Translations under genes and position numbers: made by a program
The notes under the pieces: model-generated
Database searches by the model: none
What the model was told of the DNA's origin: nothing
The model's input: only the letters and a program-made list of their open reading frames with translations
Source: an uncultured Verrucomicrobiota bacterium
GTDB lineage: Bacteria; Verrucomicrobiota; Kiritimatiellia; JAAZAB01
Length of the DNA stretch: 64,000 bases
Direction: 5' to 3'
Assembly: GCA_964486075.1 (NCBI GenBank)
Contig: CAZALU010000002.1
Location: forward strand, 1,013-65,012
Shown: piece by piece, positions 28,430 to 58,510 of the stretch
Numbering within the stretch: position 1 is the first letter of the stretch
How the letters are laid out: every line of letters begins with the position of its first letter

Positions 28430-29562
28430 CCTTGCCAGTTTTCCGCCAGACGGACCATGGTTTCATAGTTGGCCATGGTGCGGGCCGTGATCTCGCGGCC
28501 GTAGGGGCAGGCCGATGGATGCAGAATGAATCCGCGCCCTTCGCCCGCCGTGCCTTCGCGCAGTGCCTTGGCTATCTTTTTCGCGAATACGGGCTCGGGC
28601 AGGTTCTCGATATCGGCTGCTTCAATGTTGCCCATAAGTACAGTGTCGTGGCCGATGAGCGCCTTGATTTCTGTCAATTCCATGTCGCCCTGGGGCGGCG
28701 GCTCCAGCGGGTCCAGTCCGTCCGGCTTCATCTTGGCGATAAGCGGCATGATTCCGCGCAGCCTGCCGTGTGAATGGATGCGGGCATAGCCGCCGTATTG
28801 CCGAATAGTTTGCACCATGTGCCCAGTGTAGCCGACCACGTATTCATCGTACAGGTGCGGCGGCAGAAACGGCGCGCTGCCGTATTCGGAGCCGCAGATC
28901 CGCCACAGGCGTCCAGGGCAGGCCCGCGCTATCTGTTCGCATTGCGGGAAAAGTATGCGCGCGCAGCGCTGCAGAAGACGATGAAACAATTCCGGCTCGG
29001 TCATGGCGGCGACCGTATAATCTTCCATCGAAAACAGCGAGGCGGCCCCGCAGAGCGGGTCGCTTAATTCAATGCTCACGATGCCGGCGTCGCCGAGGGT
29101 CTTTTCCTCGGCGAGGATGCCGGAGACATCCACCGTGCCGAGGGCGGGTTCCGGCAGCTTGAGGTAGGCTTCGATATCCTCGGTTGTTTTGAGGAAATGC
29201 TCAAGCGTCCAGATCGTCTGCACGTTTTTGCTCTGGCTGGTGTGCGCGGTCAGGGCCCGTCCCGGCGCCCGGATTGTCGTGCGGGTGAAACGCGTATCGC
29301 CTTCGCGGCGGCTCTCCCGGGTAATGAGCTGTCCCAGTCCGTTGTCCGTTCCGCCCCGCCACTCTGCTCCGACCATACGGATGAGGTCCGTTTTTGCGTG
29401 CGCCAGCCGGACCAGCGGGCGCCAGGAAGGATCGTTCCAGACCGTGAACTCGTCACTGTCGCGGTCCATCTTCCATCCGCCGACCTCGTAGAACGAGACC
29501 GCCGGGCGGTCCACGGGTTTGCCCTGCAGTGTGGCCATCAATCGCTCACGGCGTGTCATCAT
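28426..29562 (-). CDS. uroporphyrinogen decarboxylase (URO-D)-like superfamily protein, paralog 1 (MtaA/CmuA-like fold)
   Basis: 378 aa. N-terminal RERLMATLQGKPVDRPAV matches the URO-D-like signature (…R.L.A..G..vDR.P…). It is translationally overlapped (ATGA) with the upstream cupin gene. Confidence 0.7.
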   Translation of the reverse strand: MMTRRERLMATLQGKPVDRPAVSFYEVGGWKMDRDSDEFTVWNDPSWRPLVRLAHAKTDLIRMVGAEWRGGTDNGLGQLITRESRREGDTRFTRTTIRAPGRALTAHTSQSKNVQTIWTLEHFLKTTEDIEAYLKLPEPALGTVDVSGILAEEKTLGDAGIVSIELSDPLCGAASLFSMEDYTVAAMTEPELFHRLLQRCARILFPQCEQIARACPGRLWRICGSEYGSAPFLPPHLYDEYVVGYTGHMVQTIRQYGGYARIHSHGRLRGIMPLIAKMKPDGLDPLEPPPQGDMELTEIKALIGHDTVLMGNIEAADIENLPEPVFAKKIAKALREGTAGEGRGFILHPSACPYGREITARTMANYETMVRLAENWQG

Positions 29563-30912: not shown

Positions 30913-31923
30913 TCACCGGTACCGATCTACGGATTCGATCAGGGCTTTGACGTTTTCAAACGGCGCATCATTCTCGATCTCGATGTAGAAAATTCCGCCG
31001 CCCCGCAGCCGCTGAAAGCGCTCGGCGTACTCCCGGATTTTCGCATCGATGGCAGACGGAGTGCCCCTCGGGACCAGGCGCTGGCGGTCGGGATGGATGA
31101 AAATGGCGATTTTATGCTCTTGGCACTTGCGGAGATATGAGGGGTCGGCCTCGAACAGCCCGATTTGTGGCCATAGTCCTTTTATTCCGAGATCGAGCAA
31201 GTCGTCGAAGATCTCGCCCAGGAACCCGCAGCAGTGGAAGAAAACAATGCGGTTGGCCTGCCGGATCGGCGCCATGAGTCTGTCATAGCGTGGTTTGAAC
31301 ACCTCGCGAAACAGGGCCGGCGCTATGATCGGCGCGCTCTGCGTTCCCCAATCGTCGCCGAAGCTGATGACGTCCGCCCCTGCCGCGACCAGGGATGCAA
31401 TCGCCTCCAGCCAGTAATCCGTCAGGCGATCCAGGAACGCCAAGAGATCGGGATCCCGTTCCTGGATGTCCATCAGGACTTCGTCCATCGGCCGGAGCGC
31501 GCAGAGTCGCTCGAAGATTGAAATTCCGCCCGCAAAAACCAGGAAGTTTTTGCTTTGTCCGGCGATCCAGGCCGGATCGGGTGCGGGGTGGGGCGGGAAC
31601 CGATAGTGGGCACCATCTTTCCAACTGGCAAGCGGGTAATGACGCGGGTGACCCCAAACGCCGAATATCCTATGCTCCCATTCCGTTCCCCATGCGTCGG
31701 TCCTGATCTCGTGATACTCGCCGGCTTGGTTGACGGTTCCGGGCGGCGGTGCCAGGATGGCATCGAAGCTAATCGGGTTGTCCGGCGGGTAACTCCGGAA
31801 TAGGTCGAGCAGCTTCCGGCCGTGAACGTGCAGGCCCGCCGGCGAGGGATGATAGACGACCGGTATGCGGTCGGGGTCGCCGTAGTCGAACGCGGCCTGC
31901 ATGCGTTGGCGGGAGGGCATCAT
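30913..31923 (-). CDS. URO-D-like superfamily protein, paralog 2
   Basis: N-terminal RQRMQAAFDYGDPDRIPVV URO-D-like signature. The probable start is MMPSRQ at 31923; the ORF-track N-terminus extending to 32034 is Gly/Pro-rich junk. The start lies 2 nt after the stop of the upstream 664-aa gene. Confidence 0.7.
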   Translation of the reverse strand: MMPSRQRMQAAFDYGDPDRIPVVYHPSPAGLHVHGRKLLDLFRSYPPDNPISFDAILAPPPGTVNQAGEYHEIRTDAWGTEWEHRIFGVWGHPRHYPLASWKDGAHYRFPPHPAPDPAWIAGQSKNFLVFAGGISIFERLCALRPMDEVLMDIQERDPDLLAFLDRLTDYWLEAIASLVAAGADVISFGDDWGTQSAPIIAPALFREVFKPRYDRLMAPIRQANRIVFFHCCGFLGEIFDDLLDLGIKGLWPQIGLFEADPSYLRKCQEHKIAIFIHPDRQRLVPRGTPSAIDAKIREYAERFQRLRGGGIFYIEIENDAPFENVKALIESVDRYR

Positions 31924-31925
31924 GT

Positions 31926-33920
31926 CTATCCCAGCAGCACCACAAGTTCCCACTGGTGCATGGGGTGGCCCAAGCGGATGACATCCGCGTCCACTACGAC
32001 TGCCAGGCGTTTCCCCGCCGGCGTAAGATGCCATGCTTCGACAATTGGCGGCATGCCGCGCGGACGTTGAATGCGGAACGTGTCCACCTCATCCGGGCCC
32101 GCGTTCCACACCACTCCGCGCCATGTTCCGCGGTCCTTGAGAAACTGCGGGACAAGCCAGGCGCCGCCATCCACCCGGCCCGTGCCCTCGCCATCGGCGA
32201 GCCAGTCCACGACGCGCTTGAGCTGGGTGGAGCGGTGGATGTCCATCATGGGCACGCTGTCCACGCCGGCGTCCCAGGGCACGACCGCGGTGCGGCCGCC
32301 CAGTTCATTCTTGAAAATGAATGCGCCGTGCCCGACGACTTCTTGTAACGGATTGCGTAAGTCGCTGATTACAGCCGCGCCGGGCATGAGTTCCGCCTGT
32401 AACATCCGACGGGTGTGACTTGCCCCGTTGATGGATATTTGAGCGCCGACCCGCAAGGCAAATTTTGCGTCTCGGCACTCCTCCATCGAATAAAGCCTTT
32501 CTTTCTGAGTCACAAACCGGGCCGATTGCGCGCCGATCCACTTGCCGAGCCCGCGCTCGATCAGGATTGACGCGGCGCCGCCGTCCAACAGCAAGCCCGC
32601 CGCCAGACATTTTTTCAGCGTGGCGTCATCAAAACTCCAGGCGATCGGTCCGGCCAGGGAGTTAACGTGCTGCTGCGGTCGGGCCGAGAAGGCGATGCCT
32701 GCCGTCCCCAGCCAGTTCGACCACCCGCGGCTTGCACATTGCAAGTCAGCCCAGGAACGCCCCTCCTCGAGGCGGATTAAGCGTCCCATGTCTTGTGACC
32801 ACGGGACGCCGACTCCGACGCTTTTCAGGGTCATGGGAAAGTGGTCGGCCAGCCAGTCCATGTTGGGCCGGACCTTTTCCAGGAACGCCGTCCGTTCCGG
32901 CTCGTCGTCGGGCCGGTTTCCCATAAAATCGTAAAGGCTGATATTGAGATTGGTGGATCCGAGGATATGCGCCACGGCCATTTGCGCGAAGGTCTGGCGA
33001 AAGGACTTGTTCCATTTTCCATAGGAAAAGTTTTCGATTTCCGGTCCGCTTTCGAGCACAGAGGGTTGAATTGAGCGATTCTGATCGAGGCTTGCAATGC
33101 CATGCACCAACTGGTGGCCGGTCCAGTCCGAATAACCCCAGAAGGAAGGCCGATGAATCGGGGGCTGTTCGCCGCCAAAAACCTGCCACCATTTTTCCCA
33201 CTGGCGCCCCTCGGCGGCATGGGATTCCATGGCGCTGGACATCAGGCCCATTCGCGTGCCGCCCTCCGCCAGGATCTGCCGACACTCGTCAAGAAACTGG
33301 AGTATCGTTTCCTGCCACATGTCCATCCAGATCGTCCGCCACGGGTGCGGCGCGCCCGGCGCCAGGCAGGCGCGGACGATCTCCTCCCGGCTGGCGCTGG
33401 CGCCCGCCCGTTGGTTGAACTCCGCCACATGCAGCGGGCAGAAGCATCCGCCCCATTGAAGCGTTCCGTGATTATGGTAGCGGATGTCGTCGTCGATCCA
33501 GACCACGCGGAAGCCTTCCGGGGCGTACATGCGAAGGGTTTCAAAATAGTAGGCGCGCCAATTCGGGTCGAGGATGCAGACCACCGCATCGGCCCGAGTC
33601 CCGACCGGGTCCACCATGGTCCGCCAGTCCTGGCCCGGCTTGAGTTTGCGCCCGCGATCACAGTGTAGCATGCTGTGCCAGGGATTCAGGCTCACAGCCA
33701 CGCCTGTCTTCCGCAACGCCTCGCGGTAGGGGCGGGAGCGATCGATCCACTGTTGCAACCGATCGAGGGTGTCATGCCCGTTGTTCTGTTCTTCGGCGAA
33801 GTAGAAGAACATGACTTCGTCCACCGGCGCTTCGCGTACCAGCCGGAGTAGTTGCTCCGTGATCTCCGCCGGGTCCTGGTGCGGACCGAATTGCATGCGC
33901 AGGCTGAAATGGCTTGGCAT
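31926..33920 (-). CDS. large hypothetical protein (664 aa), function unknown; translationally coupled to URO-D-like paralog 2
   Basis: Long ORF with no stop and coding-like composition. No transmembrane segments or signal peptide are evident. No motif could be assigned with confidence; it possibly has a glycoside-hydrolase-like TIM-barrel fold. Confidence 0.55.
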   Translation of the reverse strand: MPSHFSLRMQFGPHQDPAEITEQLLRLVREAPVDEVMFFYFAEEQNNGHDTLDRLQQWIDRSRPYREALRKTGVAVSLNPWHSMLHCDRGRKLKPGQDWRTMVDPVGTRADAVVCILDPNWRAYYFETLRMYAPEGFRVVWIDDDIRYHNHGTLQWGGCFCPLHVAEFNQRAGASASREEIVRACLAPGAPHPWRTIWMDMWQETILQFLDECRQILAEGGTRMGLMSSAMESHAAEGRQWEKWWQVFGGEQPPIHRPSFWGYSDWTGHQLVHGIASLDQNRSIQPSVLESGPEIENFSYGKWNKSFRQTFAQMAVAHILGSTNLNISLYDFMGNRPDDEPERTAFLEKVRPNMDWLADHFPMTLKSVGVGVPWSQDMGRLIRLEEGRSWADLQCASRGWSNWLGTAGIAFSARPQQHVNSLAGPIAWSFDDATLKKCLAAGLLLDGGAASILIERGLGKWIGAQSARFVTQKERLYSMEECRDAKFALRVGAQISINGASHTRRMLQAELMPGAAVISDLRNPLQEVVGHGAFIFKNELGGRTAVVPWDAGVDSVPMMDIHRSTQLKRVVDWLADGEGTGRVDGGAWLVPQFLKDRGTWRGVVWNAGPDEVDTFRIQRPRGMPPIVEAWHLTPAGKRLAVVVDADVIRLGHPMHQWELVVLLG

Positions 33921-35237: not shown

Positions 35238-36278
35238 ATGATACCGCGCGAACGAGTTTTAGCTGCCGTTGCTCACCGGCGCACCGACCGCGCCCCGGCT
35301 GATTACGGCGCCCACCCGGAGGTGACTGAACGGTTGATGGCCCGCTTGGGCGTCAAGGATTACGAATCCTTGCTTCAGGCCCTGGGCGTGGACATGCGCC
35401 GGATCGGGTTTAGATATGATCAGCCGGAAACTGGTCCGGACAGCGGCGGGTACCTGCGCAATATGTGGGGAGTCCGGTACCGCGACAAGGCACCCGGCGA
35501 TGGTCGCCCAAATATCATTTTTCCCTTTACCGAAGACACCACCGTTGAGGATGTGCATCGCCATGCCTGGCCGGATCCGGCCCGCCTCGATTATTCGGGA
35601 ATCCGGGAACAATGCGTAAAAGCATACGGAACCTATGCCACGTTTGGCGCGCCCTGGAGCCCGTTCTTCCATGAAATTGGCTGGATAATTGGCCAGGAAA
35701 ACTTTTTTATATGGATGGCGTCGCAGCCGGAACTGGTGCAGGCGATCATCGAGCATGTGGTGGATTACGAGGTGGAGGCGACCCGCCGCTTCCTGGAAGC
35801 GGCGGACGGCATGATCGACATCGTGTTTTTCGGTAACGACTTCGGGACCCAGCGGGGTCTTTTCATTTCCCCGGCCATGTGGCGGCAATTTATCCGTTGT
35901 CCGTTAAAACGATATTACGATGTCTCGCACGCCTTCGGATGCCGCGTCATGCAGCATTCCTGCGGCGCGATCCGTGCTATCATTCCCTGGCTCATGGAGG
36001 ACGGAGTGGATATCCTCGACCCCGTTCAATCGGCGGCGGCCGGCATGGATCTGCCGGGGCTGGTCCGGGACTTCGGAGACCGGCTGGCGTTCCACGGCGG
36101 GGTGGATACGCAGGGAGTCCTGCCGTTCGGCACGGTGCGCGAGGTCCGCGGCCAGGTCCGGTCCTATCTTGATCTCACACGCGATCAGGGAGGCTATATT
36201 CTTTGCGGAAGCCAGGACCTGATCGAAGACATCCCACTCGACAACGTTCTGGCCATGTACGACGAAAACACACGCTAA
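35238..36278 (+). CDS. URO-D-like superfamily protein, paralog 3
   Basis: 346 aa; N-terminal ERVLAAVAHRRTDRAPAD signature and a C-terminal HSCGAIRAIIPWLMEDGVDILDPV motif typical of URO-D/MtaA-like enzymes. Confidence 0.7.
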   Translation: MIPRERVLAAVAHRRTDRAPADYGAHPEVTERLMARLGVKDYESLLQALGVDMRRIGFRYDQPETGPDSGGYLRNMWGVRYRDKAPGDGRPNIIFPFTEDTTVEDVHRHAWPDPARLDYSGIREQCVKAYGTYATFGAPWSPFFHEIGWIIGQENFFIWMASQPELVQAIIEHVVDYEVEATRRFLEAADGMIDIVFFGNDFGTQRGLFISPAMWRQFIRCPLKRYYDVSHAFGCRVMQHSCGAIRAIIPWLMEDGVDILDPVQSAAAGMDLPGLVRDFGDRLAFHGGVDTQGVLPFGTVREVRGQVRSYLDLTRDQGGYILCGSQDLIEDIPLDNVLAMYDENTR

Positions 36279-36295
36279 CGGGGGAGGGTTTTTTT

Positions 36296-37555
36296 ATGAC
36301 ATTTTCGAGTCAGGATCGACGGATTCTGCGCGATTTGGCGACGCGGGTCGCGGAGGTTGCCGACCACCCCAGGATGCCCGTGCGGCGGCGGCGCTGGATC
36401 GCGCATAACAGCTTGCGCTCCACATATCCAATGATGCTGGTGTTTCCGGAAGGATCGTGGGGGGAACTTCTGCCGGAGACCTGCTTGCAATGCGTCGATC
36501 CCCGGGCGCGGGAAATTGAATATGCGTTTCGCATACGCCTTTATACCTTCGAACATTTTCAGGACGATACGGTGATCGAAAAGGAATGGGTTGTTCAACG
36601 ACGGATCCGCTACACGGGGTGGGGGCTGGAGCCCCGCCGCGTGCCGAGCCCGGCAGTCCGGGGCGCTTGGCATTTCGATCCCGTCATTCGCGTTCCGGCC
36701 GACCTCAAAAAACTAAAATACCCAGAAGTCATCCTGGACGAAGCGGAATCGCGCCGCGATCTGATGTCCGTGCAGGATCTTTTTGGGGATATTTTGGCTG
36801 TACGCAGCGTGGGCCTTCAGCATTTGTCCTACCATTTGATGGCTGAATACACGGCCCTGCGGGGATTGGAAGAGGTCATGCTGGACATGTATTCCGAACC
36901 TGGCATGCTGCATGACGCCATGGCGTTCCTGGAGGAAGGTCACCGGCGCTTGTTGCGGCAGTATATCGAACTGGGATTGCTCTCGTTCAACAACAATAAC
37001 GCCTACCAGAATTCGGGCGGCAACGGCTATACCGACGAATTGCCACTTCCAGACGCCGATCCGGACCGTGTTCGGCCTTGCGATATGTGGGCCAGTGCTG
37101 AAGCCCAGGAAATGGCCCAGGTCAGTCCGGAGCATCACGCCGAATTCATACTGGCCTATGAAAAACGTTTGCTGGCGCCTTTCGGACTTACCGGCTATGG
37201 CTGTTGCGAGGATCTAACACGGAAACTGGACATCGTTTTTGGCATTCCCCGCATAAGGCGGATATCTATTTCCCCTTGGTCGGATGTGGCCCGTTGCGCG
37301 GCCAAACTAAAAGGTGGCTATATCTTTTCCTGGAAGCCGAATCCGGCGCACCTGGTCGGTGAGTTCAATGCTCAAGCCGTCCGGTCCTATATCCGGCAAA
37401 CGCTGGATGCGACCCGTGCCTGTGGATCTGTCCTGGAAATGGTTCTCAAGGACACGCACACCTGCGAACAACATCCGGAGCGGTTCGATCACTGGACCCG
37501 CATCGGGCGCGAATTGATCCAGGAAATGTGGGGCGAACTGTCGGCTGGCGGGTAA
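36296..37555 (+). CDS. URO-D-like superfamily protein, paralog 4 (divergent N-terminus)
   Basis: The C-terminal GYGCCEDLTRKLDIVFGIPRIRRISISPWSD...GGYIFSWKPNP parallels the HxCG...GVDIL...G.dP pattern of URO-D-like proteins. The start was chosen at MTFSSQ, which follows a GGAGGG Shine-Dalgarno sequence; the ORF-track extension to 36203 overlaps paralog 3. Confidence 0.55.
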   Translation: MTFSSQDRRILRDLATRVAEVADHPRMPVRRRRWIAHNSLRSTYPMMLVFPEGSWGELLPETCLQCVDPRAREIEYAFRIRLYTFEHFQDDTVIEKEWVVQRRIRYTGWGLEPRRVPSPAVRGAWHFDPVIRVPADLKKLKYPEVILDEAESRRDLMSVQDLFGDILAVRSVGLQHLSYHLMAEYTALRGLEEVMLDMYSEPGMLHDAMAFLEEGHRRLLRQYIELGLLSFNNNNAYQNSGGNGYTDELPLPDADPDRVRPCDMWASAEAQEMAQVSPEHHAEFILAYEKRLLAPFGLTGYGCCEDLTRKLDIVFGIPRIRRISISPWSDVARCAAKLKGGYIFSWKPNPAHLVGEFNAQAVRSYIRQTLDATRACGSVLEMVLKDTHTCEQHPERFDHWTRIGRELIQEMWGELSAGG

Positions 37556-42742: not shown

Positions 42743-44034
42743 ATGTTGAAAACAAAAACGACGCCAGGCGATACGCGCTGGTTTGTGAGGGACCGGTTCG
42801 GCATGTTTATTCACTGGGGTCTTTATGCCCTGCCGGCGCGGCACGAGTGGATCAAGCAGGTGGAACAGATTCCGGACGAGAAGTATGCGACCTATTTTCG
42901 GCATTTCGATCCGGATCTGTATGATCCCGAGCTCTGGGCCCGGGCGGCCGCCGGGGCCGGCATGAATATTTCGTGGTCACCACCAAGCACCACGAGGGCT
43001 TCTGCCTGTGGGATTCGAAGCTGACCGATTACAAGGCGCCCAACACCCCGGCCGGGCGCGATCTGCTGCGCCCCATGGTCAATGCGTTCCGAAAACAGGA
43101 TATGCGTGTGGGCTTCTATCACTCCCTGATCGACTGGCATCACCCCGAGTTCACGATCGACGATATGCATGCTCTGCGGAATCACCCGGACCGCGCCAAG
43201 CTGAACCGCAGCCGGCGCCAGGAAATGTACGTGCGATACCTGCACGGGCAGGTCCGCGAGCTGTTGACCCGCTTCGGCAAGATCGACATCATGTGGTTTG
43301 ATTTCAGCTATCCGACCCGCGCCGGCCTGAAGGATTGGGTGGGCAAGGGCCGCGCCGAGTGGCAGAGCGAGAAGCTCTATAAACTGGTCCGCAAGCTGGC
43401 CCCGCACATCATTCTCGACGACCGGCTGGATCTCGATGAGGGCTGGGACATCAAAACGCCGGAACAGTATCAGCCGCGTGAATGGCCGATGGTGAATGGT
43501 CAACCCGTGGTCTGGGAGGCCTGCCAGACGTTTTCCGGCTCGTGGGGCTATCACCGGGATGAAGCCAGCTGGAAGAGCATCGATCAGCTCGTCCAGATGC
43601 TGGTCGACACGGTCAGCAAGGGCGGCAATCTGCTGCTGAATGTCGGACCCACCGGGCGTGGCGAGTTCGACCGGCGGGCGCTGGACCGGCTGGCGGGCAT
43701 GGGCGAGTGGATGAAACGCCACAGCCGCTCGATCTACGGCTGTACCCAGGCGCCAGCGGAATTCGTGACGCCGCGGGATTGCCGTTTGACGTACAATCCG
43801 GATAAGCGCCGGCTCTACGTGCATGTTTTTGCCTGGCCGTTTATGCACCTGCACCTGGACGGCTTGGCCGGCAAGGTGGCCTATGCGCAATTGTTGAACG
43901 ACGCTTCGGAAGTGCTCGCCAGCGAACCCGCCGAGCATCAGAAATCCTCGCAGGACAAGGGCACCATGGTCTTGACTCTACCGGTCCGCAAACCGGACGT
44001 AACCGTTCCCGTAATCGAGTTGTTCCTAAAATAA
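42743..44034 (+). pseudogene. alpha-L-fucosidase (GH29) interrupted by a single-base frameshift
   Basis: ORF 42743-43024 ends ...FGMFIHWGLYA...AAAGAGM, and ORF 42973-44034 begins (K)YFVVTTKHHEGFCLWDSK. Together they reconstitute the GH29 signature ...AGAKY-VVLTTKHHDGFxLWDS. The sequence catgaAtattt at ~42964-42967 lacks one A relative to the expected atgAAAtat. Confidence 0.75.
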
Positions 44035-48002: not shown

Positions 48003-48908
48003 CTAACGCACCAGATAGATTAGTTGTTCCGGTTTGCCGTTGCGCTCGATGTCCAGTACGAACCCATTTACGCGGTTGTTCACAAATTCTCGAATGAAGT
48101 ATTCCGCTCGGGTTTGACTGATCATCGGTATCTTGTTGACCGTGCGGATGACATCGTTCTGTTTTAATCCGAAAGCATTGAACATGTCGCCTTCGCCCTC
48201 GATCGCCAGTGTATAACCCGCTATCTTATCGGCCTTGTATACTGGTTTAAGGGAATCAAAAACTTTAGCCAGGCGTTCGGTGTTGTTAAGCAGCTCTGAA
48301 TAGTATTCGAGCAAATTTTCGCGTTTCAGTACCCATCGCGTTGCGCCCACCCGCTTGCCGAACCGATTTAGCATTTCTGACCCGCCAGCGGCCATTTCAG
48401 CGTTTTTATTCGTTCCGCCAGGTAGGGGGCGTTTGTCTGAAAAGCTCAGTCGCAATTCCTCGTCCCGATCCCCTGCCCTGACAATTATTTTCTCGGGGAA
48501 AATAGAAATAACCTTGACCGATTGATCCAGCAAATCGCCCTCGCATACCAATTGCTGTTGCTTGCGCTGCAGATCGTCAATGATTGCTTTGCGGGCCTGT
48601 TGGTTGCTGCCTATCGCAAAGAAAGTGCCCGCCAGTCGAAAACGCTTTGCAAGCGGACCTAAATTCTCCAGCAACGGTTCCGTAGCACGTTTTTTAAAAA
48701 CAGAACCATCGAACTCTCCGACGTCGCCCGGTGGTGAAGCCGGCCATGCGAGCGGCATGGCCGGGCGCACGGAGGAGGTTCTTGGGCATGGCGTGGGCAG
48801 CCTGGCATATAAACGGGTGTAGCCCCCGGCCAATAGCAAGGCGGCGATGAGACTCGCCCAGGATAACCCTCGCAGCCAATCATGGGTGAAATATCTTGCC
48901 ATGGCCAA
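48003..48908 (-). CDS. hypothetical membrane-anchored protein with C-terminal PDZ-like domain (GspC-like?)
   Basis: N-terminal TM segment LSWASLIAALLLAGGY. The C-terminal GYTLAIEGEGDMFNAFGLKQNDVIRTVNKIPMISQ resembles the PDZ domain of type II secretion GspC. The assignment is tentative. Confidence 0.4.
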   Translation of the reverse strand: MAMARYFTHDWLRGLSWASLIAALLLAGGYTRLYARLPTPCPRTSSVRPAMPLAWPASPPGDVGEFDGSVFKKRATEPLLENLGPLAKRFRLAGTFFAIGSNQQARKAIIDDLQRKQQQLVCEGDLLDQSVKVISIFPEKIIVRAGDRDEELRLSFSDKRPLPGGTNKNAEMAAGGSEMLNRFGKRVGATRWVLKRENLLEYYSELLNNTERLAKVFDSLKPVYKADKIAGYTLAIEGEGDMFNAFGLKQNDVIRTVNKIPMISQTRAEYFIREFVNNRVNGFVLDIERNGKPEQLIYLVR

Positions 48909-48947
48909 ATAACCGAAGATATGGCTATGCTATACGGTCCGCGCGCT

Positions 48948-49423
48948 ATGGATACCAGCGGCCGAAGCTATAAGCCGGATTCTGTGCTCCGCTGCCGGGA
49001 CAATCGCGTCCCGGATTGGACGACGGCCATTTGTCTTGCTGTTGCCGTCGCAAGGACGGGAACAGACTTATTGCGATCAACCCGAAACTGCCCCCGATAT
49101 TACATCGGGGTTAAGGCGGGCCGCCCGTGACAGTTTCATATTTGATCTTGCTCCAGGTGGGGTTTGCCTTGCCCCCGACATTGCTGTCGAGGCGGTGGTC
49201 TCTTACACCGCCATTTCACCCTTACCCCGCTCACCTCTGCAGAGAGGCCCGCAGGGCGGTATTTTTTCTGTGGCACTTTCCGTATCCCGCGCATTACCGC
49301 GGGATCCCCCGGCATTACGCCGGGGCACCCTGCCCTTTGGAGTCCGGACTTTCCTCCCCCCCATCCCGGACTAAAACCACCCGGGAGGCGGAGCGGCCGT
49401 CCACTGCAACCGCCGATATCCAA
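48948..49423 (-). ncRNA. rnpB: RNase P RNA, bacterial type A
   Basis: The minus-strand sequence contains the universally conserved P4 elements GGAGGAAAGUCCGGACUCCAAAGGGCAGGGUGC at the 5' side and CACAGAAUCCGGCUUAUAG near the 3' end. The interior has AAGGGUGAAAUGGCGGUGUAAGAGACCACC (P10/11/12 region). The P1 stem pairs 5' GGAUAUCGGCGGUUG with 3' CUUCGGCCGCUGGUAUCC. Overall length is ~475 nt. Confidence 0.85.
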
Positions 49424-49445
49424 TAAAAATACTAACAAACCAGGG

Positions 49446-50165
49446 CTAGTGTTTCCAGTATAAAATACGGCCGCAGAAATCGCAGGTTATGATCTCCTCC
49501 GCCCGGCGGGTGTCGTGAATTACCTGGGGCGGCAGCGTCATGTGACATTGTCCGCAGGCGCTGTTTTCAATCAAAACCAGCGCCTTGTCTTTCTTGTGAT
49601 CCATGACGTGATTATAGCGTGCGAGCCAGGCGGGATCGACCACGGCAGCCAAGCCATCCCTGGCTTGGCGGATCTTTTGCATTTCCTGCTCCAGGTTGTT
49701 GCGCCGCGTCTCCAGATTCTGCAATTCTTCCTGAATATGGGCGGCATCCTTTTCCAATTTTGAATTCTGCAATGCCACATCTGACTGGGCGAGATCGGCC
49801 TGTTCCATGGCTTCGATGGCGCGTTCTTCAAATCCGTCGATTTTGTCCTGGCAATGGGCGATTTCGTTATTTAATGCGCGATATTCTTCGTTGGACTTGA
49901 TCTGGTACTGCTGTTCCCGCAATTTTATTATTTGCTGGCGGCAGGTCTCTATTTCCAATTCCCACTGTTTGATGGCCGCCTGCCTGGTTTTCAGGTTTTC
50001 CTTGGCCTGCGCCAAGGCCTGGCGGGCATCGTCAATGGCGGATTGTATTTCTTTCTGGCGGGCGGGAATGTTGTCCAGCTCACGCTGGCACTGGGCAAGC
50101 TGGTTGTCGTGCTCTTGCACAACGAGCAGCTTGTCTATGATCTTAAGTACAGCTTGCTTTTCCAT
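49446..50165 (-). CDS. zinc-ribbon / coiled-coil protein (COG1579, DUF164 family)
   Basis: A long coiled coil is followed by a C-terminal C4 zinc ribbon CGQCHMTLPPQ...CDFCGRILY. The start was set at MEKQAVLKI (50165); the ORF-track extension to 50360 looks non-coding. It lies immediately upstream of rnpB. Confidence 0.65.
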   Translation of the reverse strand: MEKQAVLKIIDKLLVVQEHDNQLAQCQRELDNIPARQKEIQSAIDDARQALAQAKENLKTRQAAIKQWELEIETCRQQIIKLREQQYQIKSNEEYRALNNEIAHCQDKIDGFEERAIEAMEQADLAQSDVALQNSKLEKDAAHIQEELQNLETRRNNLEQEMQKIRQARDGLAAVVDPAWLARYNHVMDHKKDKALVLIENSACGQCHMTLPPQVIHDTRRAEEIITCDFCGRILYWKH

Positions 50166-50275
50166 GGCAGCAACTATACAATATCCGGCGAAACGTTCAC
50201 AAGCTAATATTAACACGCCCGGATGCGGGAGGAATAACGGCGGCAACAACAGGCGCGCCCTGCGAGGGAAAGAAT

Positions 50276-50719
50276 ATGGCCGGTAAAACAAAAGAGGGCA
50301 AACTGCGCAGCAGACGCGGGCAATTAACACTGCTGGGCAGGAAGACCGGAACGTTGCCAACCAGTCCTGACCAAGCCAGAATAGAAACCTTTTGTAATAA
50401 ATATCCGCAGCGCAATTATAACGTTTCTATCGAATGTCCGGAATTCACAGCGTTATGTCCGCTAACCAGCCAGCCGGATTTCGGCGTTATCGTCATCGAG
50501 TATGCGCCGAACCAGCTTTGCATTGAAAGCAAGTCGCTCAAGTTATATCTGCATTCATTCCGTAATATCGGCATGTTTTATGAGGAAGCGGTGAACCGAA
50601 TTCTCGACGATATAGTTAAAGCCTGCCGCCCCCGCAAAGCCAAGGTAACCGGCGTCTTCAATCCCCGGGGCGGCATTGCCATCACCGTGACCGCCGCCTA
50701 TCCCCCACCCCGCCGATAA
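50276..50719 (+). CDS. queF: NADPH-dependent 7-cyano-7-deazaguanine reductase
   Basis: EFTALCPLTSQPDFGVIVIEYAPNQLCIESKSLKLYLHSFRN matches the QueF Cys-thioimide and ESKSLKLY motifs. Unimodular type, ~140 aa. Confidence 0.8.
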   Translation: MAGKTKEGKLRSRRGQLTLLGRKTGTLPTSPDQARIETFCNKYPQRNYNVSIECPEFTALCPLTSQPDFGVIVIEYAPNQLCIESKSLKLYLHSFRNIGMFYEEAVNRILDDIVKACRPRKAKVTGVFNPRGGIAITVTAAYPPPRR

Positions 50720-50742
50720 TCCGCACGCAATTCTCGTGGAAT

Positions 50743-52240
50743 TTATTTCCACCCCTTACACGTTACCAGCAAGGTCTTCACCTCAAAGGGACGGAAGGTC
50801 AGCTTAATCTTGCCGCCCGCAAGTTGCACCTTGTTGCCCGTCGGGTTTTCCAGAAAATTAACTTCCCGGGCCGCGCTGATGCCTTGGCCTAGTTCTATAA
50901 TTGCCGCGCACGACCGGGCCTCTGGCAGGAACAGGCGCAGCACAATGCCGGTCGAATGCTCGGCGCGGCGCATGGCTGTGCAGAGAACCGAAGCGCTCCC
51001 TCGAATTACCAGCTGGGGCGCTTGGCTCAGCCGCGCACCGTCCGTAAGAACCGGCACCATGGAACGATTGAACGCCATGCCTTTGCGCACCAAGCTGGCG
51101 TTGGATGCTTTCGTTCCATGCGGTTCGAACGCGAACCGTATGACGTGTTTCCCGTTGTCCGTCTCCGGGTCGGGGGCATACGGATTTCGCAATAGCGTGA
51201 TGCGCAGCCGGGGACCCAGGGCATCCGTTCCATATTTCGAATCGTTGTATAAAGTGAATCCGAATTCCTGCCCCGATACGTCCGCCCATTTCTGAGTCGG
51301 CATTTCCAGGCCATTGGCCGGGATCTCGTCCACCGAGAACGGACCTTCGGGCCTCGTCAATGACTTGGAATACGTTTAACGCCAGCTCGGCGTGTGTGCT
51401 TGGCCCGTGAGTGAGCGGACGCGGGGCACCGTAGGCGACAAGTTCACGCCGTGAGCGTTTTGTCCCAGTAGGAGCCGATGGCGCCCGACGGCGTATGGAG
51501 CTTGACGATGGCTTGCGGGCTCTCCACCTCGAAGTAATCGCCCTTTTCCGTTACGGCGATCCTCGGGAACTCCCGCGCTTGGGGCAGTTCGAACAGGATA
51601 CGATAGGTCCTTTGCGAGAAGGCCGGAACCTTTGTTGCTATGAAGACAAAATTTTTATCCAATCTTTGGACCGGGATGAGTTGTCCATCCGAGTTCTGCA
51701 AGGCAACGGTATGGCGTGGCAGAGCGGCGCGCATCGGCTCGGTTCGCTCGAACCCAAGCGGGTTAAGCAAGGTCAAGTAATGCCCTTTGCGATCGGCCTT
51801 AACCAGCACGGCAACGGACGCGCTGATCACCCGGGCGGCCGTTGCCCGTGACGACTCGGCCCGCCGGTGCGCGTCGCTGTAACTGTCATGAACGGCGGCG
51901 CCATCGAAATGTCGTGAAATTGATTGAACAGCACTGGAATCCACACAGCGTGGAGTGCCGCGGTCCTATCCAGACCGGCTAATGCCGAGAGCGATTCTGC
52001 GGCCAGCAGATCGGCTTCGCACCTCCGATTGTCGCGTTTCAAGGCGGCGTGGGTGGTAAAACATCCTTCAAAATGGAGTAACATTGTCCCTTGGCTCAGG
52101 GTAAGTGTCGGGCGCCTAAAGAATCTTGGCTTTGCGGCCAAGGTGTTTAGTTGACCAGTCGGCGGCATACAACATGTGGCGGGCAATGGATTCACCATCG
52201 GCCATATTGAGATCGCCCTCGACCCAGGTGCCGGCCGCAT
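50743..52240 (-). pseudogene. alpha-mannosidase (GH38) remnant: 5'-truncated and multiply frameshifted
   Basis: Three minus-strand ORF fragments carry GH38 regions. Fragment 51827-52240 has the NQFHD motif (WIPVLFNQFHDI). Fragments 51444-51944 and 50743-51360 have the central and C-terminal domains (LYNDSKYGTDALGPRLRITLLRNPYAPDPETDNGKHVIRF). Frame changes occur between fragments. The ~300-aa catalytic N-terminal region is missing because the intact GH4 gene starts at 52633. Confidence 0.65.
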
Positions 52241-52632
52241 TTTCCCAGCGGCCTTCCTTGACCCTCGACTGGATATTGCGCAAGATAGCTGGGTCTAACT
52301 TTCTGGCCGTCGTATAATCGGAACCTGGCCCATGGTAAAGGTCAACTCAGGATAATCGTCCATCATCTTGGTCACTGATTTTTTCTAAGGGCCTTGCCCG
52401 TTTTTTTCGAGCTTGTGCCAGGTCTGCTTGAACTCGAAATCGAGCGGCCGGCGCAGAGGGTTGGCAGGGTAACGCCACTCCAGCGCCAGACGCCCGTTGA
52501 GTTCGGTGGATTGCTTGTCCAGTTCAGCCAGTAATTTTGGTCAGTCATGCCCCCCCCCCACCCTCTTCGGCAGTGCGCTGGATAAGGCTGTCGATATTCG
52601 ATTTTTTACATCCACTCCGGCGATGGAAAGAT

Positions 52633-53961
52633 TTAAATCTTCAGATGTCTGAACTGTGGCAGATACTTCTTGTTCTGGTTTAACATGGTCTGGACCATGC
52701 GCTTGATTTCCGCCAGCGAAAGCACCGCCGCGCTCAGGGGATCGTAGGCAATGGCTTGGAACACCAGGCGCGGGTTGCCGGTCAGGGCGGCTTCTACGGC
52801 CATTTCCTCCACGGCCACGCTGATGTTGTTCAAGGCGGCGCATTGCGGCGGCAAGGCTCCGACATGCACCGGGTTAAATCCGCGCCGGCTGGCGAAGATC
52901 GGCACTTCCACGCAGACGTTTGGAGGCAAGTTCGTGATCAGCCCGGTATTCGGCACGTTGCCGTTGAACTCGAAAACCTCTCCGCCCATCCGCGCGTTAA
53001 TTATGGCCGATGCATATTCCTGGCCACGCTTCAGATCCAGGGGCTTCGGGTTTTTTAGCCAGGCTCGTATTTCTTTACGCCAGGTGCGCTTGGCGCGACG
53101 ATAGCAATCCAAGATATAAGCGTGTTTGCCCGGATTCCAATCCGAGCCCGTAGTGCAGTATTTCTTGATCAGGTCCGGCCGTTTCCGGTACCACCAGCTG
53201 TATTCCGAGTTGTGCCCGCTGGATTCGGTGACGTAATAATCCAAGTGCAGGAACATATCGTTGCGGACCAGCTCATTCCGTTTGATTTTAGGATTTTCAA
53301 GGACCGCTTTACGAAGAAGCGGATAGGCGTCGCGGTTCTTCCATAAATATTTTACATACCAGGACTGGTGATTAATCCCGCCACAGACATAGTTGATTTC
53401 GCTCATGGGAGCTCCGATAAACTCCGCCAGCATCTGAGCCGTACCCTGCACACTGTGACAAAGCCCGGTCAACTGGATGCTGCTTTGCCTTTGCATGGCC
53501 CGGCACAGCATGGCCATGGGGTTGGTATAGTTCAGCAGAATCGCGTTCGGGCAAACTTCCTCCATATCGCGGCAGATGCTCAGCATGACCGGAATGGTGC
53601 GCAGTGCCCGAAATACGCCCGCCACGCTGCGCGTGTCCCCGATATTCATGTCCACGCCATAGCGCTTGGGAATCGTGATGTCATACTGCCAGACATCGAC
53701 ATCCCCGGCCAGAATCGTGCAGATGACGGCGTCGGCGCCTTTGAGGGCCTGTCGGCGATTCGTGGTGGCGATGACCCGCGCGGAATAATGGCCTTCACGG
53801 ATGATACGTTCGACCGCTTGCCGGACAAAGCCCAGCCGTTCGGGGTTGATATCCATAAGTACCAGGGTTGCATTCTCCAGTAATGGATACGTGAGAATAT
53901 CTCGGACCAAGGTCCTTGTGAACCCGAAACTGCCCGCGCCGATAAAAGTGATTTGAGCCAT
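52633..53961 (-). CDS. glycoside hydrolase family 4 (NAD+/Mn2+-dependent alpha-glucosidase/alpha-galactosidase)
   Basis: 442 aa; N-terminal Rossmann motif [15 protein letters not shown] and the conserved GH4 CHSV/GINH region (GLCHSVQG...CGGINHQSW). Confidence 0.85.
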
Positions 53962-53993
53962 GGCTGTTGTATGTCCTTTCGTTTTGTTGGTTG

Positions 53994-55706
53994 CTATGTG
54001 TAACGGAGGACTTCCTCCACGCTGGTTTGCCCGTCAAAAACATTACGCAACCCGTCATCGCGCAGCAGGCGCATGCCGTCCGCCAAGGCCTTGTTGCGGA
54101 TATCCAGCGTGGGTTGCCGCTGGCTGATCATCGTGCGCAGGGTGTCGTTGATGGCCATTATTTCATACAAGCCTTTACGTCCTCGATAGCCGGTATCATG
54201 GCACTCATGACAACCCTTGCCGTAATAGAAAGGACGTCCCCCCATGGATTCCTCGGTCATGTTCAGCAGGTCCAGCATCTGCTGATCGGGCGTGAAAGCA
54301 GTTTTGCAGTTGGCGCAAATCCGGCGAACCAGGCGCTGGGCGAGGATGCATTCAATCGACGAGGCCATCAGAAATGGCTCCACGTTCATATCGGTCAGAC
54401 GGGTTATGGCCCCGGCTGCATCGTTGGTATGCAGGGTGGTCAGCACCAGGTGTCCGGTCAGCGACGATTGGATGGCCATGCCAGCTGTTTCCGCGTCGCG
54501 GACTTCCCCGATCATGATGATGTCGGGATCCTGGCGTAAAAAATGACGCAGGATTTTGGCAAATGTAACTCCCACATCCTCGTTGACCTGGACCTGGACC
54601 AGGCCCTCGATGGGATACTCCACCGGGTCTTCGATGGTGATCAATTTCGATTCCATGACGTTGATCCGGCGCAGCGCGGAATAGAGCGTAGTTGTTTTAC
54701 CGGAGCCGGTGGGGCCCGTGACAATTATGATTCCGTTCGGTTTTAGAATATTCTGAAGAAAAACATCATGGACATCCTGAGGCATGCCGAGGTTATCCAG
54801 TTCCAGGGACACGGTGGATCGGTCCAGGATCCGGAGCACAACGCTTTCCCCAAACTGGGTCGGCAATGTCGAAACACGAAAATCGATGGGCCGGCCCAGC
54901 AGGTTCATCTGGATGCGATTGTCCTGGGGCTTGCGGCGCTCGGCAATGTTCATCCCGGCCATGACCTTGATGCGCGAAATAACCGGCAGGGCCAGACTGC
55001 GCGGTGGCGGCTGCATTTCATAAAGGGCACCGTCCACCCGGTAGCGGATTTTGAACTCCTTTTCAAAAGGCTCGAAATGGATATCGGAGGCCTTGGACTG
55101 CACGGCCTCGTAAAGAATCAAGTTCACGAAACGGACCACGGGCGCCGAGTTGGCCATTTCTTCGAGACCCGTTTCATCTTCGGCTTTTCCTTCCGTCAGC
55201 TTGAGGGTCATGCCCTCTTCGAGCTCCGACTCTAAAGCCGCAAGCATATCGTTAATGGAGGCGTCGTCATTGCTGTAAACGCGGCCGATCAGGGTCTTGA
55301 TTTCGTCTTCACGGGCCATGACAAAGGTAATATCCCGCGTCAGTACGAAGCGGATCTCATCCACGATTTCGGGGGTTGGCAGCTGGGATATGGCCAGCGT
55401 GACGGCATTGGGCCGGGTGGCTACAGGTACGACATTATACATGCGAGCCACGCTGGCGGGAATGGATTGGAGCACTTGGGGCTGGATTTCCTTGTCCTTC
55501 AGGCTGATCATCGTGATCCCGAGGTGATTGGCAATCAAGGCCAGCAACTCGTCTTCATGCATCATGCCCGTGTCGATGACGATTTTGCGGACAGAATTGG
55601 CGGTCCGGTCCTGTGCCTCGCGGACATCCTCCAATTGAGCGGCGGTCAGCGCCCCGTTGTCGATCATCAGCTGCAGCAGCGAATCCTGGATGGGTTCATC
55701 CGTCAT
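53994..55706 (-). CDS. GspE/PilB family secretion ATPase (type II secretion / type IV pilus assembly ATPase), paralog A
   Basis: 570 aa; N-terminal T2SSE_N-like domains, Walker [12 protein letters not shown], Asp/His boxes, and a tetracysteine motif CANCKTAF...CHEC. Confidence 0.85.
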
Positions 55707-55714
55707 AAATGCCT

Positions 55715-56812
55715 CTAGCGTCTTTTCGAATCCCGTCCCTGTAGTTTATTGAGAATTGCTTCGGGGTCCTGGGCCTTGGTGATCAGATCCTCGTAATTGA
55801 TTATTCCGGCTTCGTAGAGCACCAGCAGGTGTGCATCCAGGGTGAGCATGCCCCACTTGGCGCCGGTTTGAATATCCGACGTGATGCGAAATGTTTTGTT
55901 GTCGCGAATCAAGGCTTGAATGGACGGTGTGCTGATCATAATCTCAAATGCCGCCACCCGCCCCGGCTTGTCCTTGCGGATGATCAGCAGTTGTGAGATG
56001 ACCGCGACGATGCTGGATGCCAGCTGGGTGCGAATCTGTTCCTGCTGGGTGGTTGGAAAGGCATCCACAATCCGGTCCACGGTGCGCGCGGCGCCGGTCG
56101 TATGCAGCGTGGCAAAGACCAAGTGCCCGGTTTCCGCAGCGGAGATGGCTGCTTCCATCGTCGGCAAATCGCGCATTTCGCCGACCATTATCACATCCGG
56201 ATCCTGGCGCAGGGCGCGGATCAGGGCTTCTTTGAAGCCGGGCACGTCGACCCCGATCTCGCGCTGGGTGACGATCGATTTTTTGTGAGAGTGGTAATAT
56301 TCAATGGGATCCTCGATGGTGATAATATGGCAATCCCGTTCTATATTGATCAGGTCGATCATGCTGGCCAGGGTGCTGGTTTTGCCGGAGCCGGTCGGAC
56401 CGGTAATGAGAATCAGGCCCCGCGGACGGAACAGCATGTCTTTCACCTGCGAGGGTAACCCGATCTCGTCCAAGGTCATCAACTTATTGGGAATCTGCCG
56501 GAGGACCATGCCGCAATTACCCTTGGATTTCAGTACGCTGACACGGAAACGGGCCGCGTTGCCGAAGCTGAATCCGAAATCTATCCCGCCGACTTCACGG
56601 ACCTTTTGCTGGTAAGCGTCAGAGGTGATGCTCTTCATTAGTCGGTCGGTATCTTCGGGGGTCAGTGCCGGCAGATCCACGGATTGCAGATGGCCGTGGA
56701 GCCTGAGCATGGGCGGCAAACCCACGTTGATATGTAAATCCGATGCGCCTTCGTCCACGACGACCTGCAGCAGATCGCTCATGCTTACCTTCGTGTTTGC
56801 GCTTTCCGTCAT
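55715..56812 (-). CDS. pilT: twitching-motility (pilus retraction) ATPase PilT
   Basis: 365 aa; [16 protein letters not shown] Walker [24 protein letters not shown]-like ([23 protein letters not shown]) and a C-terminal PilT motif. Confidence 0.9.
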
Positions 56813-56815
56813 GCG

Positions 56816-58510
56816 TCAATCCCCCATGGTAATGCCCAGGACTTCCTGGAGCGTGGTCATGCCCGATATAACTTTACGGATACCATCTTCACGCAGGGTC
56901 CGCATCCCGACTTCCCGCGCTCGGCGCCGCAGTTCATCCGAAGTTATTTTTTTAAAGATCAGCTCCTTGATATCGTCGTTGATAATAAAAATTTCAAAAA
57001 GGCCTTTGCGTCCGAGATATCCAGTTTGGGCGCAGACACTGCAACCGGCGCCCTTGAACAGTTGGACTTGGGATAACTGCGTTTCCGTCGGGCCCAACAT
57101 GCGGAGTTCCTCTTCTGTTGGTTGATAAGGCTCCCTGCATTTTTCACAAATTACCCTGACCAATCGTTGGGCCACTACCGCCCGGATGGAGGAAGCCAGC
57201 AAGAATGGCTTGACCCCCATGTCCAGCAGGCGCGTGATCGAGCTGGGAGCGTCATTGGTGTGCAAGGTGCTGAAAACCAGGTGCCCGGTCAACGAAGCGT
57301 TGATGGCGATCTCAGCCGTGTCAAAATCGCGGATTTCACCGATCATGATTATATTGGGCGCCTGGCGCAGAATGGCACGTAAAACTGAAGGAAACGTCAG
57401 CCCGATGTCCTCGCGGACCTGGACCTGGTTGATGCCCGATAACTGATATTCCACAGGGTCTTCCACCGTAATGATCTTGCAATCGGGGCGGTTGAGGTGA
57501 TTCAGCACGGCATAAAGCGTTGTGGTTTTGCCGGAGCCGGTCGGACCGGTGATCAGCAGAATACCGTCAGGCATTCCGACCTGCTTTTCAAACACCTGCT
57601 GATCGTCGGCAAAGAACCCGAGCTTGGGCAGTCCCAGCACCAGGCTTTGCTTGCTGAGGATACGCATGACCATGCTTTCCCCATGGTTGGCGGGAACGGT
57701 AGACACGCGCAGGTCAAGGTCCTCGCCGCCCACATTAATCTGGATGCGCCCGTCTTGAGGCAGGCGTTTTTCCGCAATTTTCATGCCCGCCATGAGTTTC
57801 AGGCGGCTGAGGATGGTGGATTGCAGGCGCTTGGGCGGGTTCTCCACCTCGCGCAGGACACCGTCGATGCGATAGCGGATGCGAAAACTTTTTTCCATGG
57901 GCTCAAGGTGGATGTCAGAGGCGCGGTTGCGTTGGGCCTCGAGGATAATCAGGCTGACCAGCTTGATGATTGGCGCATCGGAATCCGTGGCTTCCATTTC
58001 GTCCGGCAAAGATCCTATGCTTGTCGATATCTTGCCGGTTACGTCGTTTTTGCCGATCAGTTCCTCGATCGTTTTTGCCTGACGCCCGTAATAATGATCC
58101 TGGGCAATCGCGATTTCTTCGTCCGAAGCCACGATACCCTCGACATTGCGCTTGAGAATGTAACGCAGGCTGTCCAAGGTTTCGATGTCCAGGGGGTCGG
58201 ACAACGCGACGGTCAGGGTGTTGTCGTTGTCGAACACGGGCATCACCTTGTAGCGGCGGGCTACGGCGGCGGGAACCTGTTTGAGGATCTCCGGAGTGAT
58301 ATCCTGGTCCGCAAGAACGATCACGTCCATGCCCAGCTGCATGGCCACGGTTTTCAGGACCTCCATCTTGGAGATCACTCCGGTGTCCACGAGCACGTCC
58401 ACAACGCTCTTGTTTGCATCGGCCAGCGGCTTGGCCGCCTCGATCTGCTCGGCCTGGATCAGGCCGACATCCTTGAGAATCTCGATGATGTAATCGTCGT
58501 TGCCTGTCAC
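56816..58510 (-). CDS. GspE/PilB family secretion ATPase, paralog B
   Basis: 564 aa; same architecture as paralog A (Walker [12 protein letters not shown]; CEKCREPY...CSVC tetracysteine). The stop is 4 nt before the pilT start. Confidence 0.85.
   Translation of the reverse strand: MTGNDDYIIEILKDVGLIQAEQIEAAKPLADANKSVVDVLVDTGVISKMEVLKTVAMQLGMDVIVLADQDITPEILKQVPAAVARRYKVMPVFDNDNTLTVALSDPLDIETLDSLRYILKRNVEGIVASDEEIAIAQDHYYGRQAKTIEELIGKNDVTGKISTSIGSLPDEMEATDSDAPIIKLVSLIILEAQRNRASDIHLEPMEKSFRIRYRIDGVLREVENPPKRLQSTILSRLKLMAGMKIAEKRLPQDGRIQINVGGEDLDLRVSTVPANHGESMVMRILSKQSLVLGLPKLGFFADDQQVFEKQVGMPDGILLITGPTGSGKTTTLYAVLNHLNRPDCKIITVEDPVEYQLSGINQVQVREDIGLTFPSVLRAILRQAPNIIMIGEIRDFDTAEIAINASLTGHLVFSTLHTNDAPSSITRLLDMGVKPFLLASSIRAVVAQRLVRVICEKCREPYQPTEEELRMLGPTETQLSQVQLFKGAGCSVCAQTGYLGRKGLFEIFIINDDIKELIFKKITSDELRRRAREVGMRTLREDGIRKVISGMTTLQEVLGITMGD

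Follow-up and report, generated by a model that had tools for sequence, protein, structure and literature searches.

The minus strand of positions 50743-52548 in the window (the whole 64,000-nt stretch of DNA analyzed here) very probably carries a true, non-functional, and multiply hit pseudogene of an approximately 1025-aa GH38 alpha-mannosidase of the Ams1/MAN2C1-like type. When aligned to an intact ortholog in the same gene neighborhood, the gene proves to have lost most of its catalytic domain piecemeal, from the inside. From the comparison with relatives, GH38 gives the impression of having been gained recently in this lineage and then not retained, instead of being a long-standing core capacity under erosion.

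Anatomy of the GH38 remnant

Both the ORF listing and a three-frame translation placed GH38-like coding pieces on the minus strand only, spread over all three of its frames from 50743 to 52548. In this stretch, Pfam recognized Glyco_hydro_38N, Alpha-mann_mid, Glyco_hydro_38C, and Glyco_hydro38C2 in separate frames (E = 2e-11, 1.4e-11, 2.7e-10, and 6e-10). The Glyco_hydro_38N match (E = 2e-11) is confined to profile positions 56-116 and lies in the piece around 52104-52330, while Alpha-mann_mid (E = 1.4e-11) falls in the piece at 51827-52240 and the two C-terminal domains in the ORF at 50743-51360. The initial annotation of this region as a GH38 remnant is thus borne out by the Pfam domains across 50743-52548 and by the best database match, which is an intact 1025-aa GH38 protein (P0001).

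P0001 was retrieved with the stitched remnant as the query (1066 bits) and carries all four GH38 Pfam domains. It is encoded on contig L002 (GCA_964652105.1, CAZYZV010000103.1), which shares its gene order with the window: a PilB-like gene, GH4, and GH38, followed by a convergent QueF gene. Over the retained blocks, the remnant and L002 are ~91% identical in nucleotides and 87.5% identical in amino acids, and the DNA alignment stays collinear from within GH4 across the leader into GH38, with the blastn and tblastn blocks in agreement. The initial annotation had proposed a TBLASTN search with an intact GH38 and a comparison with related genomes. P0001 maps the region as collinear blocks, the alignment to L002 locates every frameshift, and the boundaries of three large deletions (D1, D2, and D3) are fixed against this intact syntenic ortholog.

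The remnant consists of four collinear blocks (A to D) split by the three internal deletions, and not of the three fragments first described; five 1-nt indels and three stop codons cut these blocks further. Block A (52383-52548) contains the start codon (52546-52548) and codons 1-55, with 85% identity to P0001 residues 5-59 by tblastn and 93% identity in the DNA alignment. Block B (52104-52382) encodes codons 256-349, recognized by both Pfam and the alignment as part of the GH38N catalytic domain, and is 90-95% identical to L002 in the DNA alignment. Block C (51351-52103) encodes codons 477-728 and comprises Alpha-mann_mid, with the NQFHD motif, and the start of GH38C. Block D (50743-51350) runs from codon 824 to codon 1025 and the TAA stop at 50743-50745, taking in the last part of GH38C together with the C-terminal beta-sandwich. 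This block is 88% identical to P0001 residues 823-1025 by tblastn and holds the longest surviving ORF of the remnant (205 aa).

Relative to L002, the window copy has 11 lesions: three large deletions, which sum to 1269 missing nt, four 1-nt deletions, one 1-nt insertion, and three nonsense codons. At the D1 junction (52383/52382), 600 nt are missing (L002 3086-3685, roughly codons 56-255), a segment that includes the N-terminal extension and the HTHIDMDW motif, and a 4-nt microhomology (AAAA) is present at both breakpoints. D2 (52104/52103) accounts for 382 nt (L002 3966-4347, roughly codons 350-476), with a 1-nt microhomology and a break directly after the PDT of the PDTFGH motif, and D3 (51351/51350) for 287 nt from the GH38C core (L002 5102-5388, roughly codons 729-823), with an imperfect 8-nt microhomology (CGAGGnCC). 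The 1-nt deletions lie between 52538 and 52537 (codon 4, block A), between 52317 and 52316 (block B), between 52070 and 52069 (block C), and between 51909 and 51908 (block C, directly after NQFHD); the inserted base is at 51452 (block C). The nonsense changes are at codon 55 (52385-52387, TGG>TAG, block A), codon 345 (52116-52118, TGG>TAG, block B), and codon 479 (52096-52098, GGA>TGA, block C). The net length change is -1272 nt, a multiple of three, so that the first and last blocks lie in one frame.

The deleted segments are also present in further intact references, namely L110 (residues 1-446), L121 (residues 746-1025), and L167 (N-terminus), and L121 serves as a second intact reference that carries the segment missing at D3. 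No same-species genome was found in the GH38 scans of genome and metagenome contigs, the closest matches being L121 (95% to P0001), L110 (75%), and L015 (61%). An intact, syntenic ortholog on L002 and 11 separate disabling lesions in the DNA are two features that the locus shares with unitary pseudogenes.

Within the catalytic domain, the losses affect the motifs most directly tied to function. HxHxDxxW, the metal-binding motif of GH38 structures, is conserved in 100 of the 105 full-length homologs compared; its counterpart in P0001 (HTHIDMDW, residues 234-241) lies inside the 600-nt deletion and is absent from the window copy. The PDxFG motif carries the nucleophile Asp in GH38, and only PDT is left of PDTFGH (P0001 residues 346-352), with the 382-nt deletion directly after it and a TAG three codons upstream. 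NQFHD (P0001 residues 537-541) is kept and is immediately followed by a frameshift. The native ATG (52546-52548) opens a 58-residue out-of-frame peptide that ends in a stop, and with eight indel events and three stop codons, there is no uninterrupted frame for the whole catalytic N-domain.

These results also redraw the N-terminal part of the gene. The roughly 300-aa N-terminal catalytic domain had been described as absent; most of it is indeed gone, including HxHxDxxW, but 94 of the 244 residues of the domain (P0001 residues 229-472) are still encoded as codons 256-349. Nor is the N-terminal third of the gene lacking as such: the ATG, codons 1-55, and an 84-nt leader are kept, collinear with the ortholog, and the losses are internal. 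The stretch at 52240-52560, in which only short broken frames had been seen, carries GH38 coding sequence for codons 1-55 and for the codons from 256 to about 300.

Neighboring genes and origin of the locus

Directly upstream of GH38 and on the same strand lies an intact 442-aa GH4 gene (52633-53961, minus strand; Pfam Glyco_hydro_4 and Glyco_hydro_4C), which is 89% identical in amino acids to its L002 ortholog. Its relatives are named alpha-galactosidase in public sources, and an exact look-up of the window GH4 protein found no match on record. An intact GH4 gene adjoining the remnant had been noted at the outset, but position 52633, read then as its beginning, is the end of its stop codon; GH4 did not truncate GH38. 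On the opposite side, an intact QueF gene (50276-50719, plus strand) is convergent with GH38 and is the direct neighbor of GH4 in relatives that have no GH38. Directly upstream of GH4, a type IV pilus/type II secretion ATPase cluster (53994-58510, minus strand) encodes a PilB-like protein (570 aa), a PilT-like protein (365 aa), and a second T2SSE/MshEN ATPase (564 aa); its PilB-like/GH4 junction recurs in L002, L163, and L164 but is not conserved in L168 or L169.

Relatives were gathered by a GH4 search and their contigs fetched: L163 (GH4 85% identical), L164 (83%), L168 (80%), and L169-171 (80%), the last labeled "Verrucomicrobia bacterium." In these four more distant lineages, the stop codons of GH4 and QueF are only 13-30 nt apart, with no GH38 between them (L163 1994-2006, L164 2461-2490, L168 4137-4157, and L169 3417-3437), and no GH38 relic was found in the GH4/QueF spacers of L163, L164, L168, and L169-171. 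All four GH38-less lineages have GH4, the convergent QueF, and a CT398-like gene. A PilB-like gene is found upstream of GH4 in the window, L002, L163, and L164, and a different gene takes this place in L168 and L169-171. By pairwise distances for QueF and the CT398-like gene and by GH4 dS, the window and the L002 group are mutual nearest relatives; with GH4 taken by itself, L163 is scarcely more distant from L002 than the window is.

The silent-site divergence of GH38 is distinct from that of its surroundings. Four-fold sites differ from L002 at 39 of 281 positions in GH38 (13.9%) vs 164 of 530 (30.9%) in the flanks (Fisher p = 4e-8), where the flank set comprises the PilB-like, GH4, QueF, and CT398-like genes on both sides (49446-50719 and 52633-55706). 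Likewise, dS is 0.13-0.25 in the GH38 blocks vs 0.53-0.75 in the flanks. The low silent divergence of GH38 is seen whichever of two independent metagenomic representatives, L002 or L121, stands for the intact lineage, and GC3 is similar between GH38 and the flanking genes. This suggests that the alleles of the GH38 cassette trace back to a later common ancestor than those of the flanking genes, as a result of recombination or recent insertion.

We weighed gain of the gene against its loss, a comparison that rests on six lineages without a rooted species tree. A single insertion of a ~3.2-kb cassette in a small clade, with recombination between lineages explaining the low silent divergence, is the account we consider somewhat favored; one insertion is more parsimonious because several clean losses would otherwise be needed. 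The converse, in which GH38 was ancestral at the locus and is being lost, the GH38-less relatives representing the end state and the window an intermediate, is unlikely. Stepwise deletions of the kind seen in the window copy could eventually erase a gene, GH4-GH38 adjacency recurs in 17 of ~160 related loci, distant phyla included, and a GH29 gene in the window is frameshifted as well. However, the clean spacers of the four outgroups would require several complete and tidy losses, and a four-fold divergence less than half that of the flanks would be unexpected for an old resident.

Under the insertion account, the cassette (leader, gene, and about 23 nt) would have entered the short convergent GH4/QueF spacer only in the clade of the window and L002. 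Alleles would then have been exchanged between the two lineages, probably by homologous recombination through the conserved flanks, and the GH38 gene would not have been maintained in the window lineage. The deletions may have arisen by slippage or illegitimate recombination at short repeats, and neutral decay would have followed under the usual bacterial bias towards deletion. Taken as a whole, this proposed history of an accessory glycoside hydrolase in an uncultured PVC-group (Verrucomicrobia-like) clade (a cassette placed into a 13-30 nt spacer, passed between diverging species by homologous recombination, and destroyed in one of them by microhomology-mediated deletions) is tentative, with a chance that we put a little short of even.

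A 9-mer, GGGTGGGGG, occurs at 50702-50710 and at 52555-52563 (minus strand), that is, within the 3' end of QueF and just before the GH38 ATG, so that it flanks the cassette. As an insertion scar, it was rejected as too weak: the window holds four copies vs about one expected, and 3 of 100 shuffles reach four.

The GH29 alpha-L-fucosidase gene (42743-44034, plus strand) carries one 1-nt deletion after the ATG codon at 42962-42964 (AGM/KYFVVTTKHHEGF), in line with the frameshift claimed in the initial annotation. With one base inserted, it encodes a 430-aa protein that matches positions 28-343 of the 345-position Alpha_L_fucos profile (295 bits). This single lesion is possibly very recent or polymorphic. 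The other carbohydrate genes in the window (GH130, an SASA/CBM9 esterase, and GH4) are intact, and two lesioned genes in 64 kb fit a turnover of accessory glycan genes and do not show general decay. An ongoing loss of capacity in this lineage, as initially proposed, agrees with the decayed GH38 and the frameshifted GH29; for GH38, however, the four outgroups without the gene and the low silent divergence point to a recent gain.

Sequence integrity, selection, and the leader

An independent assembly, Logan contig L001 (SRR8925755, 3907 nt), is 100% identical to window positions 49327-53233 and spans all lesions, although it is not independent data if the window genome was also assembled from SRR8925755. 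Gene calls on L001 returned the same GH38 fragments. Elsewhere in the window, long housekeeping genes are intact, including those for PNPase (705 aa), IF-2 (701 aa), NusA, ComEC (875 aa), GatA, GatB, and pyruvate kinase; at the left end of the window, an open frame of 807 codons is also uninterrupted. There is no general frameshift noise in the window.

The region at 1-2422, considered as ORF-poor, is one intact open frame running off the window end, and the overlapping ORF pairs 22360/23171, 39383/40095, 30913/31926, 26215/26669, and 35238/36203, considered as frameshifted genes, are separate genes with over-extended starts according to Pfam. A span of 8 kb contains three separate paralogs of the uroporphyrinogen decarboxylase family (URO-D-like; 28426-29562 and 30913-32034, both minus strand, and 35238-36278, plus strand), and beside them are large ORFs without a Pfam match (31926-33920 and 36203-37555). 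The ORF-free gap at 48908-49446 is filled by a full-length class A RNase P RNA (48955-49412, minus strand; Rfam RF00010, 216.7 bits), and the short "ORFs" listed in this gap are spurious.

That the GH38 gene is really intact, with sequencing or assembly errors producing its frameshifts and gaps, is very improbable. The source is probably a metagenome-assembled genome, and the multiple-of-three net length change, which leaves the first and last blocks in a shared frame, would suit such errors. Against this, (i) the microhomology at the deletion junctions is only 1-8 nt, too short to collapse a de Bruijn graph; (ii) the Logan assembly is identical over the lesions; (iii) all five single-base indels are located outside homopolymers; (iv) three of the lesions are nonsense substitutions; and (v) neighboring genes of 700-875 aa are intact. 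A plausible single-frame reconstruction after correction of a few errors, which the initial annotation had named as the sign of an intact gene, fails, as 1269 nt are missing at the three junctions and the same is true in L001.

The pattern of substitution in the remnant was compared with that in its flanks. Against L002, the remnant has a dN of 0.066, a dS of 0.20, and a dN/dS of 0.33 over 592 comparable codons, vs dN/dS values of 0.10 for GH4 and 0.086 for the PilB-like gene. Mismatches by codon position are flatter in the remnant (0.083/0.055/0.135) than in GH4 (0.104/0.032/0.282). Both results would fit relaxed selection on the remnant; when amino-acid changes were polarized with outgroups of ~60% identity, however, 25 fell on the window branch and 18 on the L002 branch, with no significant excess (p = 0.36). 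Within the intact lineage, L121 and L002 (L002 5152-5996, the C-terminal 280 codons) give a dN/dS of ~0.67 from only 23 changes, which hints that GH38 may be weakly constrained there too.

Second-position divergence gives a rough estimate of ~0.04 substitutions per site for the neutral evolution of the window copy. This corresponds to ~80 substitutions over the 1805 retained bases and is consistent with eight indel events and three nonsense changes. On a rough reckoning, neutral evolution of GH38 would take up about one fifth of the period since the window and L002 lineages split.

It is also very improbable that a surviving fragment, such as the C-terminal ORF of 205 aa at 50743-51360, still yields something useful to the cell. 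This ORF is the longest in the remnant, is without an internal lesion, and has a dN/dS of 0.45, which is below 1; however, part of what a pairwise dN/dS records is evolution under selection in the intact lineage. Furthermore, the start of the ORF is a TTG created by a deletion junction, no promoter-like site was found for it, and it would supply only the end of GH38C and the beta-sandwich, without catalytic residues. In annotation, the fragments should be called one pseudogene, rather than three to five hypothetical proteins as on the Logan contig, and no GH38 mannosidase activity should be credited to the organism from this locus.

Between the GH4 stop and the GH38 ATG, the 84-nt leader (52549-52632, minus strand) is collinear with the 80-nt leader of L002. 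On the plus strand, 52550-52559 is the C10 run that the initial annotation had correctly located; on the coding strand, it is a G10 run two bases upstream of the GH38 ATG, where the sequence reads AGGGTGGGGGGGGGGC and then ATG. This leader is shared by L002 and L167, which have G9 where the window has G10, and at this position GH38 genes of more distant relatives show the Shine-Dalgarno-like sequences GGAGG or GGAAAGG. The tract is best read, from these alignments, as a G-rich ribosome-binding region inherited with the gene and one slippage step away from the ortholog. A promoter and terminator scan of the locus gave nothing informative, with no such site on the minus strand of the leader. A phase-variable contingency gene was also considered and rejected: the G10/G9 tract is upstream of the ATG, outside the ORF, and the gene is dead whatever the tract length.

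The alignment to L002 is unbroken through the G-run; therefore, the poly-C tract is not a deletion scar, and the deletion initially suspected there is located at other junctions. A single N-terminal truncation at this tract, removing the catalytic third, has virtually no chance of being correct: C10 does sit between the GH38 remnant and GH4, but collinearity extends from GH4 through the leader, the G10/G9 run, the ATG, and codons 1-55, and the deletions are at 52383/52382, 52104/52103, and 51351/51350.

Comparison with known systems

By sequence, the best structural relatives of P0001 are GH38 enzymes of the Ams1/MAN2C1 type (PDB 6lz1, 7vqo, 7dd9, and 5jm0, plus the other alpha-mannosidase entries 7ufr-7ufu; E = 1e-46 to 1e-61). 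In common with P0001, they have a long extension N-terminal to the catalytic domain as well as the HxHxDxxW, PDxFG, and QFHD motifs. The Ams1/MAN2C1-type proteins are active enzymes, whereas the first of these motifs and most of the catalytic domain are missing from the window copy.

The closest comparison is with the intact lineage itself. P0001 on L002 and the near-identical L121 and L167 (JGI sample 3300005936) have the same gene order and the same poly-G leader as the window. P0001 is an uninterrupted ORF, whereas the window copy is without codons 56-255, 350-476, and 729-823 and is disabled by another eight lesions. The resulting series of intact, decaying, and absent genes, together with the low silent divergence, provides a small, clean example of how CAZyme genes come and go in uncultured PVC bacteria, and the locus touches no open question.

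Bacterial pseudogenes decay by deletional bias, as reportedly described by, for example, Mira, Ochman, and Moran in 2001. The window copy resembles this general course of decay, in which small indels, nonsense mutations, and microhomology-flanked deletions shrink an unselected gene. Overall, the GH38 locus is a real but ordinary pseudogene, and the evidence for recent gain, possible exchange between lineages, and decay is only mildly notable. What sets it apart from ordinary decay is that, at silent sites, the dead GH38 has diverged less from its live ortholog than the live genes on either side have from theirs.
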